Below are positions 1 through 11,703 of a stretch of DNA of 64,000 bases, one piece after another. The first letter of the stretch is position 1. Each line of letters opens with the position of its first letter. A program made the translations under genes and the position numbers. Under the pieces are notes generated by a model. That model made no database searches, was not told the origin of the DNA, and worked only from the letters and a program-made list of their open reading frames with translations. Source of the stretch: Firmicutes bacterium CAG:321_26_22 (GTDB lineage: Bacteria; Bacillota_I; Bacilli_A; RF39; UBA660); the NCBI GenBank assembly GCA_001916775.1, contig MNTB01000030.1:33962-97961 (forward strand), given 5' to 3'.

Positions 1-715
1 TTGGTCTATATTTTCTAAATTCTTCTTCAGCTTGTTCACCTAAGTTTTTAGTATCAACTAAGAAAAGAATTCTTTTTGCTTTTGCATATTTTAACAATCT
101 ATATACGGAAGTTATAGCAGTAAATGTTTTACCAGCACCTGTTGCCATTTGAATTAAGGCTCTAGGCTTATTTTCAGAGAATGATTTTTCCAAATTAACA
201 ATAGCATTAACTTGGCAATCTCTAAATCCTTTAGCATCAAGTTCTGGAAATTGCTTCATTCTATTTCTTAAAGTGTCATTATCTTTTAATAATTGTTCTA
301 ATTCTTCTGGTGTATGAAACATAAATATTTCTCTTGATCTTGCTTTTTCATCCTTATAGTCACAAAATCTAATTATAATATTTGTACATTCATAGGCAAA
401 TCTTATTTCAGGTTGTTCTTTTAATCCTCTTAATCCACTCTTAATATATCTTAGTGATTGTTCCGCTACAACACCTAGCGTAGTTCCTCTTTCTTCTTTT
501 TTAGCTTCAATAACACCAACAGGTTTACCTGCTATAAATATTAAATAATCTACAGGTCCACTATTGGTTTGTGCCTCTCTTAAAATAACACCTAAAGAAG
601 CTGTAGGATTAAACGAATCAACATTTTGAATTACAAAACCTGCTTCTCTTAATTTTTTATCAATATCTATTCTTGCTTTGGCTTCGGGATTTAAATTTAA
701 ATCTTCTAATTCCAT
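1..715 (-). CDS. hsdR: Type I restriction enzyme R subunit (HsdR), N-terminal fragment; gene continues beyond window start
   Basis: Manual minus-strand translation from the ATG at 715 gives MELEDLNLNPEAKARIDIDKKLREAGF... (HsdR N-terminal domain), then a Walker A helicase motif (LIQMATGAGKTFTAI). The reading frame stays open to position 1. Confidence 0.75.
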   Translation of the reverse strand, partial: MELEDLNLNPEAKARIDIDKKLREAGFVIQNVDSFNPTASLGVILREAQTNSGPVDYLIFIAGKPVGVIEAKKEERGTTLGVVAEQSLRYIKSGLRGLKEQPEIRFAYECTNIIIRFCDYKDEKARSREIFMFHTPEELEQLLKDNDTLRNRMKQFPELDAKGFRDCQVNAIVNLEKSFSENKPRALIQMATGAGKTFTAITSVYRLLKYAKAKRILFLVDTKNLGEQAEEEFRKYRP

Positions 716-886
716 ACTACTACCTCTTACTTCCCATTTCATCTCACATATTCAATAATAATTATAACATATAATTTGACATTTGACAAATAGATTTTCT
801 CGGCATAAAATCGTATTTGCGACAATTATTATAACTATTCAAAAGTTGCACTTGACTTTTTAATTAATAAGAAAGTTGGTAAAATA

Positions 887-1995
887 ATGGCAGTTTATAA
901 AGAGCCTAAGCCTACTAAAAATGGTAGAGATTGGTATTTTAAGTTTAGCTATAAAGATGAATTTGGTGCTACTAAGCAGTATAGATCTAAAAGATATTTA
1001 ACTAAAAAGGAAGCATCTGATGCGGAGAGAATGTTTTTAGTTACTTCTACTGATAAAGTTGAAGATAATAATATGACCTCTAAGGATTTATATGATGAAT
1101 TTAGAATGCATAACGATGAAATAATGAAAGATGCTACTAAGTATGGTTATGATAATAAAGAAAAATTTATAGAATGCTTCTATACTGTTAAATTGAAAGA
1201 TTTTAATATCATGCAGTTTGAACAATGGAAACGAGAAATAAATAAACTTAATATATCTCTTAGATATAAAAATGATATTTATAAATTTCTTAAATCTATT
1301 TTAAACTTTGGTGTTAAATGGCATAATTTAAACTTTCAAGCAGTATATAATAAAATGACAAAGTCCCAAGATCCTAATGAACGTAAAAAAAAATGTCTTA
1401 TTATACTTATGATGAGTTTAAAAAGCTTATTTCTTATGAAGAAGACTTAAGATGGAAATGTGTATTTGAAATATTATATTACTGTGGATTACGTAAAGGT
1501 GAATTAAAAGGACTTACTTGGAAAGATATTTATTTTGATAAAAAAGTTTTATCTGTTAATAAACAAATAACCCAGAGAAATAACCGTGTTAAGTTTGAAT
1601 TTTCAGATACTAAGGCAAGAGATAGTAGAAGAATAGTTCCTATTACTAAAGTCTTGCTAAATGACCTTAAAATGCTCTATGAACAGGATAAAAAAGATTA
1701 CTATGGATTTAACGACAATTTCTTTGTCGTTTCTGATTCTAAACCTATAGCTGATTCTAATATATATCTTAGAAGAACTAAATTAGCTACTCTTGCTGGT
1801 TTAAAAGTTATTAGGATCCATGATTTTAGACATTCATGCACATCATTACTTATTAATAATGGTGCTAATGTTACATTAGTTGCAAAATATTTAGGACATA
1901 CAAAAATCGAGGAAACACTAAATACATATTCACATATGTTTAGTACTGCCCTCGACTCTGTTGTTTCTGTTATAGATAGCTTGGAAGATAACTAA
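887..1995 (+). CDS. Tyrosine recombinase / phage-type integrase, split into two ORFs (887-1450, 1393-1995) by a frameshift inside an A9 tract (1385-1393); pseudogene or slippage-prone
   Basis: ORF1 is an N-terminal SAM-like domain. ORF2 carries the catalytic box (HDFRHSCTSLLINNGANVTLVAKYLGHTKIEETLNTYSH). Adding one A (A10) fuses the frames as ...NERKKKMSYYTYDEF... Confidence 0.7.
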
Positions 1996-1996
1996 G

Positions 1997-2887
1997 CTAT
2001 TTTTCTTTTATCATTTTATTAACTAATAATCCCACATTAGTTCCTAACCCATTTTTAATCTTTGTAATATCTTCTGCTAAATCTTTTTCTCTTCTGATTG
2101 CATTTTTTATTCCAGGTTCAAACTCTTTAAAATTTAAAGAGTTTTTTCTATAGCCACATGCATCATGCAATCTCTTTTCAATATATCTTCTTCCAGAGTT
2201 ATTCATTTTTTTATTTATTATCAAATCTTCTTTGTTTTCAGAATCAAATTCATCAAAATGCATATATAACCATAATTCAAAGCTTGGATTACTAACATAC
2301 AAATTAACATTATTCTTCTTGCAGAATTCAACTACTTTATCATATTGTTCTTCTGTAAAACTATCTTTATCTCTATCGACTACCATATTAAGTGAATCAA
2401 CATCAGACGAATAAGTAACATCCTGCGCCTCAAAATACTTTTCAAAGTTTTTAGCCATATCTTCGTATGCCTCATTTTTAAATAGATACATAAATACTGA
2501 ATCTAAATCTTTATACGGTATTCTATAATTATCACCTTTATACATTTCATCTAATTTTGTAAAAGCACTATCTAAATCAATTTTACCAGGATTTTCATGA
2601 TCCCAATTTGATAATTTGTTTTTCAATTCTCCTACTGTTACTTCATTAGCAGAATTATCAATAAATGTTTGCAGTAATTTAATGACATGTGTTGGATTAC
2701 TGTGTCCTTGATTTGCATAATCTCTCAAAATATTAATAACAGTTACATTTTCTTTTATTAGTGATTCATTCAGTTTTTCAAAATATTTTGGTTCAGTTGC
2801 AGAACCTTCGGAAGCTATAAAATACTTTTTTCTATAATCACTAATTTCAGATTCTCTTTCTGTAGCAAATGGTTCTTTAATCCTCAT
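1997..2887 (-). CDS. RloB-like (Toprim-like) protein, AbiLii-like partner of the upstream ATPase
   Basis: N-terminus MRIKEPFATERESEISDYRKKYFIASEGSATEPKYF is typical of the RloB family. The gene is translationally coupled (11-nt overlap) to the AAA_21 ATPase gene. Confidence 0.55.
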   Translation of the reverse strand: MRIKEPFATERESEISDYRKKYFIASEGSATEPKYFEKLNESLIKENVTVINILRDYANQGHSNPTHVIKLLQTFIDNSANEVTVGELKNKLSNWDHENPGKIDLDSAFTKLDEMYKGDNYRIPYKDLDSVFMYLFKNEAYEDMAKNFEKYFEAQDVTYSSDVDSLNMVVDRDKDSFTEEQYDKVVEFCKKNNVNLYVSNPSFELWLYMHFDEFDSENKEDLIINKKMNNSGRRYIEKRLHDACGYRKNSLNFKEFEPGIKNAIRREKDLAEDITKIKNGLGTNVGLLVNKMIKEK

Positions 2888-4193
2888 AATTAGTATCTAT
2901 GTTGGCTATAGCACCAAATCTACCTTCCAAATATGCTTTATCAATTTTTCTATCAAATCTTGCTACATCTTTGAATTCTTCTAGAGAGAATATTCTTGTG
3001 TTTCCTTCTTCTGATTTTTCTGCAAACCATATTTCATCACGTCTAACTAAGTCAAAATCTAAAGTCTTTAATTCATGCGTAGTTATTATCAATTGGTTAG
3101 TATTATTTGACTCTAAAAATAATTTTAGTAATCCCTCAACAAGCAATGGATGTAAGCTGCTATCTAATTCATCTATTAAATAAACTTTATTATCAGTTAA
3201 TAGTATATCAAGTAATTCTAATACTCTAATTGTACCATCTGATTCTTCATATGCTCCAAAAGAATATTCACTATTATTGTGCATGAATTTTAAACTTTTT
3301 ACTTCAAATTTATTATTTTCATCTTTCTTAACAAGATATAAATCATTTTCAATTCTCAATGTACAACTATTTATTTTTGCCTTTTTAGAAATCATTTCGA
3401 AGTCATTAATAAAATTAGCAAAATCAACATCTGACATTCTTGATCTAATGCTATTAATATCATAATCATCAGCTTTAATATTATTAATATTTATATCCAT
3501 TTTATTTAAATACTTAATTATTTTATCTTTTTTATCAACATAATCTAATGGTAATAATTTATGTGATGCAGGTCTAATAATTATCATTTCATTCGCTAAA
3601 AAATTAAATACATTTATAATATCTTTAAAGAAAATATCATTATTTTTTGACATTATTAATCTTCTTGACATTTCAAGTAAAAATAAATCTGAATTATTAT
3701 TTTTCATTTCCTTTAAACAAGTATTAAAATATTCATTTTTTTCTTTTATATCTGATCCAATTGTCTTTTTCTTTAAATCTCTTTCAAAAATAATTTTTTC
3801 TGTAGGTTTAGTCATATCAATCAACCATTCAGAAACTAACTCATTTCTTGAAAAATTTAACTCAAATCCATATGAATATAATTTTTTGTCTATTTCTATC
3901 TCATATTCAAAGTATGAATCCTTATTTGGATCACCATTTTTTCCTCTATAAAATTGATTATTTATTAAAGTTCTTATTCCACCATTAAAAATACCTTTAA
4001 TAATACTTATAGCAATTATTAAATTAGACTTTCCTGAACCATTAGCTCCAAACAATCCAGAAAATTTTAGAATCTTTTTATTATTTGTTTCAATAATATG
4101 ATTCTCATTATTTCTAACCTTCCCTGCCAACATTGAAAAATGTTGTAATTCATCAAAAGATCTAAAATTCTTAACTTTAAATCCCATTAGCAT
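2877..4193 (-). CDS. AAA_21-type ABC-like ATPase (AbiLi / RloA-like)
   Basis: Walker A GANGSGKSNLIIAI, Walker B LIDELDSSLHP, and an ITTHE motif. It forms an operon with the RloB-like gene. Confidence 0.65.
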   Translation of the reverse strand: MLMGFKVKNFRSFDELQHFSMLAGKVRNNENHIIETNNKKILKFSGLFGANGSGKSNLIIAISIIKGIFNGGIRTLINNQFYRGKNGDPNKDSYFEYEIEIDKKLYSYGFELNFSRNELVSEWLIDMTKPTEKIIFERDLKKKTIGSDIKEKNEYFNTCLKEMKNNNSDLFLLEMSRRLIMSKNNDIFFKDIINVFNFLANEMIIIRPASHKLLPLDYVDKKDKIIKYLNKMDININNIKADDYDINSIRSRMSDVDFANFINDFEMISKKAKINSCTLRIENDLYLVKKDENNKFEVKSLKFMHNNSEYSFGAYEESDGTIRVLELLDILLTDNKVYLIDELDSSLHPLLVEGLLKLFLESNNTNQLIITTHELKTLDFDLVRRDEIWFAEKSEEGNTRIFSLEEFKDVARFDRKIDKAYLEGRFGAIANIDTNYED

Positions 4194-4516
4194 ATTAACA
4201 ATCCTCCTATTCTTAATATAATTATATTACAATTTTTCTCATTTGTGAAGGTTATTATACATCTTTTTTATAAAAAATCAATACTTTTATGTGATTTTTC
4301 CACATTTAATGCTGTTTTTTTAATTATGTTGTGATATAATTGTTATGAGGAAATAAAAAGAAGTTCTGCAAAACTTCTCCTCAATGTGTAAGATAATACA
4401 TCTCGCAAACTAATTTTGGATTAACATCCTATTATTAGTATATCACACTTTTGTGATCTTAAAACATTTTCTTTTAATAGGATTGTAAATTCATTTTAAA
4501 GAAAGGAAGTGTTATT

Positions 4517-4732
4517 ATGGCAACAGTTAAGGCTATACATCAAACAAGTACAGGCAAAAACGATTTGTTCATTAACACTGGGAATCATCACAAAATGACA
4601 CTTAATCAATTTGTAAAAAGAATTGAAAGTGACAGCTCTGTTTATAGTGATAGATATTACATTAAACATGATAGCAGTGGTAAAACTCCAGTATCAAAAC
4701 CAAACGGCAATAAAAAAGACAATCTCGAATAA
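4517..4732 (+). CDS. hypothetical small protein (71 aa)
   Basis: Shine-Dalgarno GGAAG sits 8 nt upstream of the start. A clean rho-independent terminator follows at 4757-4781. Confidence 0.45.
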   Translation: MATVKAIHQTSTGKNDLFINTGNHHKMTLNQFVKRIESDSSVYSDRYYIKHDSSGKTPVSKPNGNKKDNLE

Positions 4733-4756
4733 CTGTGGTTTATTATCTTACACAAG

Positions 4757-4781
4757 CACTAGCTTTGGCTAGTGTTTTTTA
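4757..4781 (+). terminator. rho-independent terminator (cactagc-tttg-gctagtg followed by T6)
   Basis: 7-bp GC-containing stem followed by a T-run, directly after the stop of the 71-aa ORF. Confidence 0.6.
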
Positions 4782-4963
4782 ATTATAGATAATTCTTTGT
4801 AATCTTCTTCATTACCAACTCTTTTTAAATAATCTATACCGCCATCAACTGCTACTGCTCCACATGAACATCTTTTATAATCATTAGTACTTTTTGATTC
4901 TATAATATCTCCACATTTTTTACATTTAATTTTATTTCTAATTATTTCTTCTTTCTTTTTCAT
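4769..4963 (-). CDS. small zinc-ribbon protein (CxxC...CxC), 64 aa
   Basis: The motif CKKCGDII-x15-CSCGAVAVDGG has four Cys. AAGGAG-like RBS is present upstream. Confidence 0.5.
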   Translation of the reverse strand: MKKKEEIIRNKIKCKKCGDIIESKSTNDYKRCSCGAVAVDGGIDYLKRVGNEEDYKELSIIKKH

Positions 4964-5218
4964 AAGTCATCTCCTCATAATGTATTATACCATGATCTTA
5001 TAACAATTATATCCTACCGTTTGCGGTATAATACCACTGCAACCATACGGATAAAATCTATATTGTCCATATCACTGTAAAAAAATCCATTGAGAATTTT
5101 TGCCACTTTCGGCACTTTTTCTCAATGAACTATTTTAAAACTCAATTTTTTTGTACCTAAATTGTACCTAAAATTATTTCAGCAAAACTGATGCCTTGCA
5201 ACCCCTTATAAAATGGGC

Positions 5219-5249
5219 ATAAAAAATGAGAGCACGGTTAAATGCTCTC
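5219..5249 (-). terminator. rho-independent terminator (gagagca-loop-tgctctc, then U-run on minus strand)
   Basis: The hairpin overlaps the stop codon of the Mrr-like ORF and is followed by TTTTTT on the minus strand. Confidence 0.6.
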
Positions 5250-5525
5250 TTCAGGGGGGCAACTTAGTTCTAATTCTTTTTTTAAAATAGACTTTAGATC
5301 CGAAAATTTCTTAATATGTTTGCACTGGCAAATTATGCCATTTTCTTTATTTCTTAAATCAATTCCACCATCCTTACCCATTTTAAAACTTTTAAACTCC
5401 AAATTTAACTTTTTTGAAATAATATCCTTTGACAATTTTTCAAACTCCAACGGACTTAGTACATCTAAATTGTATTTCATACATATAACACTTCCTTTAC
5501 TACCAAAAAACCTGTAAATTAACAA
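5238..5525 (-). CDS. mini Mrr-type restriction-endonuclease-fold protein (Mrr_cat N-terminal core; possibly truncated)
   Basis: LSPLEFEKLSKDII...GKDGGIDL...ICQCKHIKK matches the Mrr_cat catalytic core (D-GGID ... QxK). The likely start is the internal Met (MKYNLDV). It is the last gene of a three-gene operon and is followed by a terminator. Confidence 0.5.
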   Translation of the reverse strand: MLIYRFFGSKGSVICMKYNLDVLSPLEFEKLSKDIISKKLNLEFKSFKMGKDGGIDLRNKENGIICQCKHIKKFSDLKSILKKELELSCPPEESI

Positions 5526-5557
5526 AACTATAATATAATTCTATTCTGTCATTCACT

Positions 5558-6343
5558 TTATCTCTCCAAGCTTTCTAATTCATCTAATTCATACTTAATA
5601 TTTTTATTAAACTTAATTTTGGAAACATTATATATAGCTGCTAATGGATATCTTACTTTAGGAAATGACTTAAATATTTTAAATGGTGTTATCCATATTA
5701 AATAATCTATATTTGAATCTTTTAATATATTTAACATGTTACTATCCTTCCACCAACAATGTAGGTCTCCTGTCATTAGTTCGCCCGGCCCTTTAGGAAC
5801 TTCGCAATCTATAAGTTTAATATATGGTGTTGATTCATCAAAAACAAAAAACATTGTCTTAAATCCTGGATGATTATTTTTATATTTTTCTATTTTTTGT
5901 ATATGTTTTTCTATTACCCTTTTAAAATTATCAACATAAAGTTTATAGTTATGATCATTATGTCCTTCAAGTCCACAATAAGGATTTATGAACAAATTAC
6001 CAGCTTCTGCTATTTCCTTAATGGTTTTATTTTTATCTATTAATTGTTTTGTTATTTGACTTTCTTGCTCATTATGTCGATTAATTACTCTACCATTTTT
6101 ATCAACAAATGTATGATCATCAATTCTCATTACATCCATCATTAATTTAAATTTATTATTATAAAAGTCCGGCGGTAAAGCATTTTTAGAAGAGGCATCA
6201 GTCCATGTTTTCCATAACAATTTATTATGTATTAATCTATATAATAGTATATTATTAAAATTTAATGGAAATATTTTTATCCTCCTTCTTTTTAAGTCTT
6301 GAAAAGTTTGTATTATTCTTTCTTCTTTATCATACCTATTCAT
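5558..6343 (-). CDS. hypothetical protein (261 aa), middle gene of the TM-protein / unknown / mini-Mrr operon
   Basis: Long ORF lying 16 nt downstream of 6359-7132 on the same strand. No recognisable motif. Confidence 0.55.
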   Translation of the reverse strand: MNRYDKEERIIQTFQDLKRRRIKIFPLNFNNILLYRLIHNKLLWKTWTDASSKNALPPDFYNNKFKLMMDVMRIDDHTFVDKNGRVINRHNEQESQITKQLIDKNKTIKEIAEAGNLFINPYCGLEGHNDHNYKLYVDNFKRVIEKHIQKIEKYKNNHPGFKTMFFVFDESTPYIKLIDCEVPKGPGELMTGDLHCWWKDSNMLNILKDSNIDYLIWITPFKIFKSFPKVRYPLAAIYNVSKIKFNKNIKYELDELESLER

Positions 6344-6358
6344 TTATACCACCCCTAA

Positions 6359-7132
6359 TTATGCAGAAAAGCACTGATATTTTTTTCTTGTCTCTAGCTT
6401 TAGAGATTCAAAAAATTTATATGGCTTAAATTTAATATTATTGTAAATTTTTATATCTTGCCACTGTTCAATATATTGTGTGATATCCTCATTTATTACA
6501 TCAAATATTTTAAAAAAACTTTCTGTTTCTTTATTTATTTTCAACTCTTCCTCTGCGCAATAAAATTCAAATTTAAAATCTTTTATAATAAAATTAAGAT
6601 CATTATTATACAAATCATGAATTTCAAGTATATTTCTTTGTGACATTATATAATTGATATGTTCATTAATATATTTTATATTGTTACTTAATATATTTTT
6701 TAAAAAGTCTAATAGTTCGGGCTTTTTATTTTCACCGTAGTCAGCAAAGATTTCTTTTGTTATTTCATACCATTCTTTCCATTTGAATTCTTTATTGCGA
6801 TAGTCTTTTTTTCTTCCTGCTACTGAGCAAAATTCTGACCAACCTTCTATATATTTCATAATACTAAATTGTAAATCACTATAAACTAACATATAAATAT
6901 CATTATGTTTTTCATTTTTTTCCTTAACATTTCCAAATTCAATAATTAAGGCTACTATTGTTGATGCAAAACAACCTAACCCTATATTTAAAATTATATC
7001 TGCTAATATTTTGTCTTTTGCTTCCTGTAAGTAAATCCCCCATACCATAAGCATTATGGACATAAACAGCAAGCTTAAATATAAATGCCAATTTAGTTTG
7101 TATGGTTTATTTATTTTATTATTCATTTTCAA
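6359..7132 (-). CDS. hypothetical membrane protein (2 N-terminal TM helices, 257 aa)
   Basis: Hydrophobic segments LYLSLLFMSIMLMVWGIYL and LGCFASTIVALIIEF, followed by a soluble domain. Confidence 0.55.
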   Translation of the reverse strand: MKMNNKINKPYKLNWHLYLSLLFMSIMLMVWGIYLQEAKDKILADIILNIGLGCFASTIVALIIEFGNVKEKNEKHNDIYMLVYSDLQFSIMKYIEGWSEFCSVAGRKKDYRNKEFKWKEWYEITKEIFADYGENKKPELLDFLKNILSNNIKYINEHINYIMSQRNILEIHDLYNNDLNFIIKDFKFEFYCAEEELKINKETESFFKIFDVINEDITQYIEQWQDIKIYNNIKFKPYKFFESLKLETRKKYQCFSA

Positions 7133-7144
7133 CTTCTCCTACTT

Positions 7145-7206
7145 CTAGTTAATACAAAAAGACGCAGTACAAAAAATCTATTAAATAGACCTGTACTAGC
7201 GTCTTT
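7145..7206 (-). terminator. long-stem rho-independent terminator downstream of the acidic micro-protein gene
   Basis: aaagacgcagtac...gtactagcgtcttt nested stem, followed by a U-run on the minus strand. Confidence 0.55.
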
Positions 7207-7267
7207 CTTTAACTAAATTAAGTATATCAAATTATTTTTATTTATTCAATATATTTTGACAAATTTC

Positions 7268-7450
7268 TTATTCATCATCATCTTCTGAATAATAGTCATC
7301 ATCTTCTAGTTCTTCCTCTTCAAAGTTAAATGTATCATACTTCTTTTCTTTTACTAATTCTTTTTGCCAATCTTCTAAATAATTATTATCTTTTTTATTA
7401 TCATCTTCTGTATCTGCAAATGCTTTTATTAAGTTCCATATTAAACACAT
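7268..7450 (-). CDS. highly acidic small protein (60 aa, C-terminal EEEELEDDDYYSEDDDE)
   Basis: ORF with its own terminator. Extreme Asp/Glu content. Confidence 0.45.
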   Translation of the reverse strand: MCLIWNLIKAFADTEDDNKKDNNYLEDWQKELVKEKKYDTFNFEEEELEDDDYYSEDDDE

Positions 7451-10409: not shown

Positions 10410-10804
10410 CCATATAACTTCTATTTATATATATAGATGCAGGCACGACAAAAACTCACACCCACATCTCATTTTTTTTACTTTTATTTTTGATGAGATA
10501 AAGGTGTGATATTTATAGTAAACATGATTACATTACCTACATATTTATACATAAATATCCCTCCACTTATAATATATTATAGTTTTTTATTTTTGTCAAT
10601 TGTTTTTACACTGCAAGCCATTTGTCTTGCTAGTGTTATTTGGAGTCTTTGGTCTCCAAATAAGTATTAATTATACTTATTATATATAAGTATGAAATAT
10701 ATACTTAAAGTAGTTTATTATTGGTATTTTTTTTGTTATTTTGAGTATAATAATAGTGCAATATACTTGACTTTTTATGATAGTTATAGTATCATTGTAT
10801 TACC

Positions 10805-10917
10805 GGAGAGAAATCTCGTCAGGTCGATAGCTCAATGTCGATTTTATTAAATTAAGTGTATGTTAAGTACACCGCTTGAGTTGGGGAGAGACTACTAGAT
10901 AGTCTCTTTTCTTTTTA
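10805..10917 (+). ncRNA. candidate ~110-nt small RNA (promoter TTGACT-17-TATCAT at 10769-10797, terminator at 10888-10917)
   Basis: Promoter-like hexamers and a terminator bracket a non-coding stretch. Convergent with the DUF3800 gene. Confidence 0.3.
10888..10917 (+). terminator. plus-strand rho-independent terminator (agagact-actagat-agtctct + TTTCTTTTT)
   Basis: Hairpin followed by a T-run on the plus strand. No plus-strand CDS ends here. Confidence 0.55.
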
Positions 10918-11703
10918 TGGGAATAATAGTTTATGATCGATAATATCAATATCAGAATCAATATTTGATAATGCTCTTCCTCTAGTAGTACCTGCTATTA
11001 AATCTGCTGCTTGCACTAAGTAACTCTTACCTGAATCTTGATATGTTAATCTTATTTCTAATTTTCCATATAATATATTTTTGTATATTATGTCATAATT
11101 AAAATTAGATATTCCATGTAGTAATTCTTCTGTTAGACCATCTTTTAAATTATAATAACCATTACTTTTTGTAGATTGTTCATCTATATTTATTATTAAT
11201 CTCACATTTTTATGTGGGTCTATTTTTTTATCTTTTATTAATTCTTCAATGGTACTTTTAATTAGTCTTCTTATTGTGTAATCTATGTATCTTCCTTTTG
11301 AGGCTTTATTATTTATAATATGATTATATACTTTTGTATTATTTATTACTAGGGCAATAGTATAATATTTACTTATGTAGTTCATAATCCTTCTTTTATG
11401 ACCTTTCTTGATATTTGTATTTTTTATTTCTTTACATTTTTTAGTACATTCTCCTTTTGTTTGGTCACAGTAAGAACATTTTATTTCATTTATTATTTGG
11501 CGATACTGCGTTATAAATTTATCTTTTTCTTGTTTTGATAAAAAGACTATTCCTGCATATACTGATACTTTTTCTTTTTTTGTTAATTTACCTGAATCAT
11601 CTAAATTTATATATATTTCTTGATATTCTTCTTTTTTATTCATGTAAGCGCTCCCTTCAATTGTTTTAATGTTTATTATAGCACTTACTTTTACTCTTGT
11701 CAT
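10915..11703 (-). CDS. DUF3800-family protein (likely start at the internal Met, MNKKEEYQEIYINLDDSG)
   Basis: N-terminal INLDDSG motif and C-terminal LVQAADLIAG motif, both hallmarks of DUF3800. Confidence 0.55.
   Translation of the reverse strand: MTRVKVSAIINIKTIEGSAYMNKKEEYQEIYINLDDSGKLTKKEKVSVYAGIVFLSKQEKDKFITQYRQIINEIKCSYCDQTKGECTKKCKEIKNTNIKKGHKRRIMNYISKYYTIALVINNTKVYNHIINNKASKGRYIDYTIRRLIKSTIEELIKDKKIDPHKNVRLIINIDEQSTKSNGYYNLKDGLTEELLHGISNFNYDIIYKNILYGKLEIRLTYQDSGKSYLVQAADLIAGTTRGRALSNIDSDIDIIDHKLLFP

Follow-up and report, generated by a model that had tools for sequence, protein, structure and literature searches.

A candidate single-gene defense nuclease family beside the stub of an Mrr-type gene in a defense island of Firmicutes bacterium CAG:321_26_22

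Three open reading frames (ORFs) lie between positions 7132 and 5238, on the minus strand, of a 64,000-nucleotide (nt) stretch of contig MNTB01000030.1 from Firmicutes bacterium CAG:321_26_22; this whole stretch is referred to below as the window. The first gene, G1, encodes a membrane protein with two transmembrane (TM) helices, the second, G2, a protein of 261 amino acids (aa), and the third, ORF3 or "mini-Mrr", a short product carrying the core of an Mrr-type nuclease. A first-pass annotation had proposed that the three form one uncharacterized defense system. Here, the genes are compared with their relatives in other genomes, and the proposal is weighed against the reading that the locus consists of independent pieces.

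Results

Genes of the locus

The window has a G+C content of ~25%. As first described, the three ORFs exist, run in one direction and follow each other at short distances. G1 (7132-6359, minus strand) encodes 257 aa from a TTG codon, or 255 aa from the ATG at 7126, which is the start used in relatives. G2 (6343-5558, minus) follows after a spacer of 15 nt and has its own ribosome-binding site, GGGGTGG. ORF3 was first called at 5525-5238 (minus), which leaves a spacer of 32 nt from a TTG start; the ATG at 5480, preceded by the ribosome-binding site AAGGAAG, is more probably its start, giving an 80-aa product (5480-5238) and a spacer of 77 nt.

G1 and G2 are intact, real genes, each with homologues of the same length. 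The statement that their products match nothing recognizable holds for both: neither is matched by a model in Pfam, NCBIfam, PHROG or PADLOC, the best PADLOC (v2.0.0) hit for G1 having E = 0.19 and G2 having none at E ≤ 1 in PADLOC-DB v2.0.0. G2 is under purifying selection, with ratios of non-synonymous to synonymous substitution rates (dN/dS) of 0.10-0.37 relative to close relatives.

ORF3 is the stub of a larger nuclease gene

ORF3 is the dead 5' stub of a gene for a 772-aa PDC-S73-type protein, which combines an Mrr nuclease with an nSTAND3 NTPase. The Mrr_cat core noted in the first-pass annotation (GKDGGIDL...QCK) is present and, as also noted there, short of the full domain: ORF3 scores 21.9 bits against the Pfam cut-off of 21, aligns with profile positions 2-59 of 115, and does not attain the complete domain with its four-stranded PD-(D/E)xK core. 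It likewise matches the first 74 positions of the PADLOC models PDC-S73 (752 positions), Aga_TIR-PNTD (639) and Aga_REase-TIR (572), and is no full-length PDC-S73 protein, a class of ~750 aa made up of a nuclease, a STAND NTPase and a C-terminal region.

That the mini-Mrr frame might be the truncation of a longer gene in relatives had been raised in the first-pass annotation itself, and such a gene exists. In the near-identical metagenome contig L095 (loci used for comparison are given L numbers), G1 and G2, the latter with 97% nt identity to the window, are directly followed by an intact gene whose 772-aa product matches PDC-S73 with E = 4e-100 over profile positions 3-729 of 752, nSTAND3 following the Mrr core. 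L088 has the gene in two parts, with a frameshift in an A-run between them: an 83-aa piece matches PDC-S73 positions 3-85, and the following ORF of at least 536 aa matches positions 130-645.

The intact gene of L095 reads ...AAGAATTAGAAAAAGTAAAT..., and ~3.2 kilobases (kb) further, past a gene for a 279-aa membrane protein, the same contig reads ...GACGAATTAGAACTAAGTTGTCCCCTG..., while the window junction reads ...AAGAATTAGAACTAAGTTGCCCCCCTG.... Deletion of ~3.2 kb between two copies of the 9-nt repeat GAATTAGAA yields the window sequence; the loss fused codon ~72 of the gene to a 25-nt recombination-type site. The pseudogene stub (5238-5480, minus) comprises the first ~72 codons of the PDC-S73-type gene (5480-5268) plus 8 junk junction codons. 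PDC-S73 itself is a PADLOC single-gene defense candidate with Mrr_cat and nSTAND3, Avs-like in build, and its likeness to ORF3 is that of the first 74 profile positions. With ~72 of ~772 codons, the window copy lacks the fourth strand of the nuclease core, the NTPase and the sensor region, and is therefore a remnant rather than a working member.

Other alleles are in agreement with this assignment. Contigs L001-L006 are ~96% identical to the window over G1, G2 and ORF3, and the similarity ends at 5252, in the last codons of ORF3, after which they run on into a KAP NTPase gene; all six carry a TTA-to-TAA nonsense change at stub codon 24. In L091 and L096 nearly the whole stub is gone. Searched against databases, the 80-aa product hit short proteins only (52-131 aa), which all share ...KKELELSCP and then continue into at least six unrelated C-terminal tails.

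A PDC-S73-type gene or its remnants also lie downstream of recG in L084, L085-L087 and L007, after differing cassettes (Fic-Fic; AbiEi/AbiEii). The damage there and in L088 is independent, i.e., a frameshift in L084 and in L088 and another truncation point in L085-L087, which points to the gene having been inactivated again and again at a chromosomal hot spot.

An integrase-bounded cassette abuts the stub

The stub ends in a 25-nt junction or attachment (att)-like site, GAATTAGAACTAAGTTGCCCCCCTG (5252-5276, minus), in which the breakpoint is the 9-nt repeat and the variable cargo starts on the 3' side of CCTG. A single copy of the 25-nt sequence GAATTAGAACTAAGTTGYCCMCCTG is present in the window and at each locus in 12 related contigs, with at least three unrelated sequences after it. 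In L095 and L092 it stands after the intact gene and the 279-aa gene (the un-deleted left flank), and in the window, L001-L006, L089, L093, L094 and L097 after the truncated stub.

Positions 869-5251 (minus), past this site, contain an integrase-bounded cassette whose left end is conserved and whose cargo varies. Its left end, 220-520 nt after the 25-nt site, is common to the window, L090, L092 and L093, and the integrase at the far end is shared with the same three contigs (92% nt identity). The cassette ends are 91-93% nt identical to those of L092 and L093 (left end 85-90%), and the left end is 91% identical to that of L090; homology at the right end stops at window position 869 for L092 and L093 and at 1127 for L090. 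The genes between these shared ends differ. With its conserved ends enclosing differing cargo, 869-5251 is thus one of a family of integrase-bounded defense cassettes with interchangeable cargo.

In the window, the cargo is AbiLi (4193-2877, minus; PADLOC E = 3e-73) and AbiLii/RloB (2887-1997, minus; E = 7e-18), which bears out the AbiL-like pair of the first-pass annotation, together with a DUF7695 gene identified by Pfam (4963-4769, minus) and a DUF3892-like ORF (4517-4732, plus). The integrase reported as a neighbour, a tyrosine integrase at the cassette's far end (887-1995, plus), is indeed present, but it is frameshifted (887-1450 and 1393-1995); it is apparently split in L092 and L093 as well, and L094 has an intact copy of 393 aa. 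At the same 25-nt site, L092 and L093 carry Fic-domain genes, L001 a KAP NTPase matching PDC-S49, and L095 a DUF3644/EC042_2821 protein matching PDC-S19, so placed that the site looks like a cassette-exchange hot spot. No convincing att-type direct repeat of the junction was found at the integrase end (16-mer search with ≤3 mismatches; repeat search of 600-5400), and the right boundary of the cassette is for this reason set solely by the loss of homology at 869.

The hairpin with a T-run at 5249-5228 (minus), retrieved by a terminator scan and described in the first-pass annotation as the clean terminator of the operon, lies past the homology breakpoint at 5252. Since it is beyond the breakpoint with L001-L006 and shared with L090, L092 and L093, which have other cargo, it belongs to the conserved left end of the inserted cassette. 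The idea that the rest of the Mrr gene might be found on the far side of the integrase (window 1-886) was discarded, as the DNA there encodes HsdR.

G1 and G2 do not travel together

Co-occurrence was assessed in two sets, 65 species-level genome loci with G2 homologues, in which ORFs were called and clustered, and 80 metagenome loci plus 10 further contigs with G1 homologues. No G1 homologue is near G2 in any of the 65 loci (0/65), and no G2 homologue is near the distant G1 genes (0/~80 loci). Among 74 G2 loci, a match to the G1 profile hidden Markov model adjoins G2 only in the window and L001-L006; among 90 G1 loci, those in which G2 follows G1 all have a G1 with ≥88% identity to that of the window. 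In L092, G1 is kept and G2 is cut to a 56-aa remnant. The three-gene co-occurrence in other genomes, which the first-pass annotation had put up for checking, is thus not conserved: an operon of all three genes does not recur across diverged genomes, and adjacency of G1 and G2 is restricted to relatives that are ~96-98% nt identical in G2.

The upstream neighbours of G2 in L007-L013 (211, 471 and 456-503 aa) were considered as counterparts of G1 and set aside; they have no similarity to G1 and match other candidate systems, namely NsnA / PD-T4-2_A and PDC-M36A. From these comparisons, the G1-G2 adjacency most plausibly reflects two cargo genes that lie close together; in the window they are probably co-transcribed simply for this reason.

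The G2 family and its predicted fold

An exhaustive profile search places G2 in a family of 505 clusters at 50% identity with E ≤ 1e-3, 231 of them with E ≤ 1e-30; a word-indexed search gave 90 hits. Nearly all members are 250-290 aa long, and none was found in plasmids. The AlphaFold model of G2 (predicted local distance difference test, pLDDT, 93; predicted TM-score, pTM, 0.90) has a mixed α/β core preceded by a small unassigned domain of the N-terminal ~55 residues, and a helical insertion (residues ~89-157) between strands 67-74 and 162-169.

Searched individually, six of 57 members match REase_DpnII-MboI (PF18742) below threshold, the best with E = 9e-4, and two of 57 match HamA (PF08878), over residues ~131-179. 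Over 200 representatives, D59 (in PPDF), D/E70, H147, D169 (in FVFDES), D200 and D213 are conserved at 97-100%, and E7, D76, E170, Y136, Y154, Y174 and K222 at >90%; the invariant acidic residues PPD59, D/E70, D75/D76 and D169-E170 are situated at strand ends of the model. Read together, these features make G2 a candidate enzyme with a divergent PD-(D/E)xK-type, restriction-endonuclease (REase)-like fold, its link to the PD-(D/E)xK superfamily being probable though unproven. It differs from REase_DpnII-MboI and HamA in that its matches stay below the curated cut-offs and that its core strands are split by the large helical insertion.

G2 is frequently embedded in type I restriction-modification operons

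In 24 of the 65 species-level loci an hsd gene is directly adjacent to G2; the count rises to 31/65 within two genes and 32/65 within 5 kb, and hsd genes flank G2 on both sides in 17/65. The neighbour clusters were assigned by Pfam to HsdR (HSDR_N, SWI2_SNF2, T1RH-like_C), HsdM (HsdM_N, N6_Mtase) and HsdS (Methylase_S). The commonest order is hsdM-hsdS-G2-hsdR, with 0-31 nt between G2 and the preceding gene and 2-22 nt between G2 and the next one, and four loci have the order hsdR-hsdM-G2-hsdS. Cultured strains with an hsdM-hsdS-G2-hsdR operon include Muricomes intestini DSM 29489 (L023), Blautia fusiformis (L024) and Mediterraneibacter agrestimuris (L028). A position between or beside hsdM, hsdS or hsdR on the same strand is hence a property of the G2 family, one that the window copy shares only in part. 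Two database proteins are fusions of G2 to pieces of HsdM, the type I layout surrounds G2 in 5 of 11 IMG/VR loci, and hsdS shufflons with a recombinase are present at several G2 loci (L014, L023, L031).

Elsewhere, G2 follows a Gabija-like ATPase/UvrD pair (L016, L017), a PDC-M36A-like protein (L008) or an NsnA / PD-T4-2-like protein (L007), and in the window it stands between a metallophosphoesterase matching PDC-S10 and the PDC-S73 stub. Oenococcus phage phiS11 (L180; KF183314.1 35737-36513) encodes a G2 homologue with 32% identity, annotated as hypothetical protein, right after the lysin/holin genes and beside a type II restriction enzyme, a C5-methyltransferase and Vsr; by its gene order this is a typical defense "moron" site of a temperate phage.

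A module upstream of G2 recurs in L008, L009, L013 and L032. It consists of a MazG-like protein, an nSTAND3/SLFN-helicase protein (~625 aa) and a 456-503-aa protein (PDC-M36A-like in L008), and is possibly another multi-gene candidate system.

G1 is a membrane protein with varied surroundings

G1 is all-helical, with two N-terminal TM helices, of which TM2 is almost invariant, and a cytoplasmic helical bundle. Its distant homologues (35-45% identity) occur in conjugative elements, either between topoisomerase III and a protein of ~1,960 aa or after VirD4/TraG; another is found after a 299-aa membrane protein, opposite Fic, and another between a 244-aa protein and a KAP NTPase. No G1 homologue was found in viral contigs. 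In ~25 near-identical human-gut contigs, which probably represent one lineage (L101-L123, L153, L161), G1 homologues lie 83 nt downstream of a gene whose 306-aa, REase-like product weakly matches SacI (E = 1.5e-3) and has the motif GDIDL...EVEIK, and no methyltransferase was seen nearby.

The first-pass annotation had considered that homologues of the first two genes might occur in housekeeping contexts without any nuclease partner. Homologues of G1 and G2 do exist without each other and without the Mrr-type partner, but their contexts are other defense operons and mobile elements, not housekeeping loci.

Surroundings of the locus in the window

At its start the window contains the N-terminal 247 aa of an HsdR-type subunit (1-742, minus; Pfam ResIII, HSDR_N, SWI2_SNF2). 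The supposed hsdR fragment represents the N-terminal part of an HsdR gene (HSDR_N plus ResIII) that runs off the window and is cut simply by its edge; in the ORF clustering it groups with the HsdR neighbours of G2 from other genomes. On the other side of G1 are the metallophosphoesterase gene (8530-7727, minus; PADLOC PDC-S10, phrog_1649) and an acidic 60-aa ORF (7450-7268, minus), and the order metallophosphoesterase-acidic ORF-G1-G2 is kept in L001, L002 and L089-L097. The 60-aa ORF corresponds to the acidic micro-protein listed in the first-pass annotation; it has no family match, and its C-terminal half is extremely acidic, EEEELEDDDYYSEDDDE. Its product could be a micro-protein with a regulatory or DNA-mimic-like role.

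Ahead of G1, 20 nt before its ribosome-binding site, there is a strong hairpin followed by a U-run (7205-7155, minus). The RNA of 7133-7270 folds with -34.9 kcal/mol (z = -5.7), none of 200 shuffled sequences being equally stable, and Rfam holds no RNA family that matches this 5'-leader hairpin of G1. The only promoter-like sites there (7262-7221, minus) are upstream of the hairpin, which from its position could either terminate the acidic 60-aa gene or serve G1-G2 as a leader structure. Because the hairpin precedes the G1 ribosome-binding site, the promoter of the G1-G2 "operon" is uncertain, and expression of the two genes may hinge on read-through or attenuation at this structure.

Further away, the Rfam DUF3800-I RNA motif RF02969 is matched at 10795-10919 (plus) with 65.6 bits, the gathering score being 44.2. 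The match overlaps, on the opposite strand, the 3' end of a DUF3800 gene (10915-11703, minus).

Discussion

In our assessment the locus is probably a defense-island stretch of independent pieces and not a three-gene machine, with G2 as a stand-alone candidate defense nuclease. The three-gene system envisaged in the first-pass annotation does not stand as a conserved unit, ORF3 being a stub and G1 and G2 being neighbours only in near-identical relatives. The defense-island setting holds, and the label of uncharacterized candidate survives for G2 and, more weakly, for G1.

Embedding provides independent and fairly strong evidence for a defense role of G2, which makes it a reasonable new single-gene defense candidate. 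Independent defense genes are known to occupy the hsdS-hsdR gap, PrrC, TgvAB and DarTG2 among them. "Guilt by embedding" in type I restriction-modification (R-M) has a good record, PrrC being almost exclusively embedded there (bioRxiv 10.1101/2024.01.29.577857). Two further examples are TgvAB, a defense system embedded in a type I R-M operon of Vibrio cholerae VPI-2 (PMC11411939), and DarTG2, which is situated between hsdS and hsdR in the E. coli RRDM island (PMC12255303). To these G2 is similar in its embedding and in its probable complementarity with host R-M; however, it is one protein of 261 aa with no relation to GmrSD or DarT/DarG, and its activity is putative. A similar habit is seen in RloA/RloB (AbiLi/AbiLii), the "restriction-linked ORFs" of Campylobacter type I loci, which are habitually hsd-linked, as is G2. 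The RloA/RloB pair of the window sits between G2 and HsdR, however, it is cassette cargo, and both proteins are unrelated in sequence to G1 and G2. G2 is accordingly placed as a new unannotated family among embedded single-gene defense candidates, and not as a new kind of system.

For the mechanism, we infer that G2 would be a metal-dependent nuclease with a divergent restriction-endonuclease fold, in which D59, D/E70, D76, H147, D169/E170, D200, D213 and K222 are candidate active-site residues. It may act alone as a defense effector that complements type I restriction, recognizing a feature of foreign DNA in a type IV-like manner, comparable with Mrr/McrBC beside EcoKI and TgvAB in the Vibrio type I operon. 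Selectivity for a foreign nucleic-acid feature seems more likely than a latent toxin restrained by the Hsd complex, since about half of the G2 copies lack an hsd neighbour and an obvious immunity partner is seen beside none of them; indiscriminate cutting is less likely. G1 would be a separate membrane-embedded cargo gene, possibly with a membrane-acting role in exclusion or abortive infection.

Several observations weigh against this reading. Foldseek of the G2 model against the PDB gave nothing with E < 0.75, and a profile search of PDB sequences with G2 also returned nothing. The canonical (D/E)xK motif could not be placed in G2, which has no lysine at the canonical position, and no SRA, EVE, winged-helix (wH) or DUF3427-type domain was detected in it, the type IV idea being by analogy only. 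The window copy of G2 is outside a type I operon: HsdR is 4.8 kb downstream, past the cassette, and hsdM and hsdS are not in view. The arrangement of the REase-like gene and G1 leaves room for a genuine partnership of a membrane protein and a nuclease. Finally, the differences among stub copies of ORF3 are mostly silent, 7 synonymous against 2 non-synonymous (P = 1.4e-4 relative to the neutral expectation), a bias that is unexpected in a long-dead fragment and needs either recurrent deletion from intact alleles or residual selection. On account of this bias the mini-Mrr was reconsidered as a functional small protein, an option rejected as the main reading in view of the nonsense codon, the alleles without the stub and the absent fourth core strand. 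We tentatively ascribe the bias to repeated deletion out of intact alleles, or recombination with them, at a site prone to recombination.

An alternative closer to the initial proposal is that G1 and G2 are a true two-gene defense system, in which a membrane sensor or effector works with a nuclease module that is exchangeable between lineages. The 15-nt spacing, with a ribosome-binding site of its own for G2, would suit such a pair, which is retained in at least 15 contigs while G1 drifts to 78-88% identity, and the near-invariant TM2 suggests a functional membrane element. The sole hint of a nuclease partnership is the other G1 clade downstream of the unrelated REase-like gene. The pair-bearing contigs, however, being so nearly identical in G2, amount to a single evolutionary observation; G1 is missing from every species-level G2 locus and G2 from all distant G1 loci, G1 is also found alone in conjugative elements or beside Fic, KAP NTPase or HEPN-like genes, and L092 retains G1 with G2 down to 56 aa. 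We consider this alternative unlikely. Quite unlikely, too, is that G1, G2 or both have no defense role and are selfish or mobile-element maintenance genes, e.g., a recombination or excision factor (cf. XisH) or an exclusion protein, which are carried along at sites of frequent recombination, the hsdS-hsdR gap being one. Many embedded G2 copies are indeed beside hsdS shufflons with a tyrosine recombinase (L014, L023, L031, L169, L178), and G1 is frequent in conjugative elements, yet G2 is also present where no recombinase or shufflon is nearby, its neighbours are overwhelmingly defense genes, and tight operonic spacing with hsd genes combined with purifying selection fits a host-beneficial gene.

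The embedding itself could be explained by a guardian role of the PrrC kind, in which G2 is a latent nuclease that is freed when a phage anti-restriction protein disables the Hsd complex, leading to abortive infection. PrrC has an N-terminal ABC-type NTPase domain and a C-terminal anticodon nuclease. In the type I operons of many Firmicutes, G2 occupies the slot of PrrC in EcoprrI, i.e., the hsdS-hsdR gap, on the same strand and with gaps of ~10 nt, in many species, and the near-exclusive embedding of PrrC adds to the parallel. The two proteins, however, have no sequence or domain similarity. G2 is a single domain in which Pfam, NCBIfam and PADLOC detect neither a P-loop nor an ATPase; it has no PrrC-type NTPase or regulatory domain, is not matched by the PADLOC PrrC model, and is predicted to be REase-like, not HEPN-like. 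About half of the G2 genes, the phage copy included, have no hsd gene within 5 kb, and G2 must therefore be safe and useful without the Hsd complex. A PrrC-like guardian is for us an improbable explanation. We are just as doubtful about a combined scheme in which G2 would represent a new class of nucleases coupled to type I R-M, a small protein of REase fold tied physically or functionally to the Hsd complex, acting as a PrrC-like sentinel freed by anti-restriction proteins or as an accessory nuclease for modified DNA, that in this lineage has been re-wired to G1 as a membrane-gated pair with swappable nucleases.

The reading of independent pieces with G2 as a stand-alone candidate has consequences beyond this contig. 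A tidy "mini-nuclease" at the end of an apparent operon turned out to be a deletion stub, and its terminator that of a neighbouring cassette, which calls for caution in reading defense islands from sequence only. One 25-nt site and one integrase family carrying at least six different defense cargos offer a compact example of cassette exchange in a defense hot spot. The value of the locus is moderate, as a candidate and a cautionary example, and no surprising mechanism is in evidence. G2, as a small single-domain protein, lends itself to testing how embedded effectors complement restriction. If it is active, a widespread family that is at present invisible to annotation, with ~500 clusters at 50% identity, mostly from gut and rumen Firmicutes, would join the defense genes nested in type I R-M systems.

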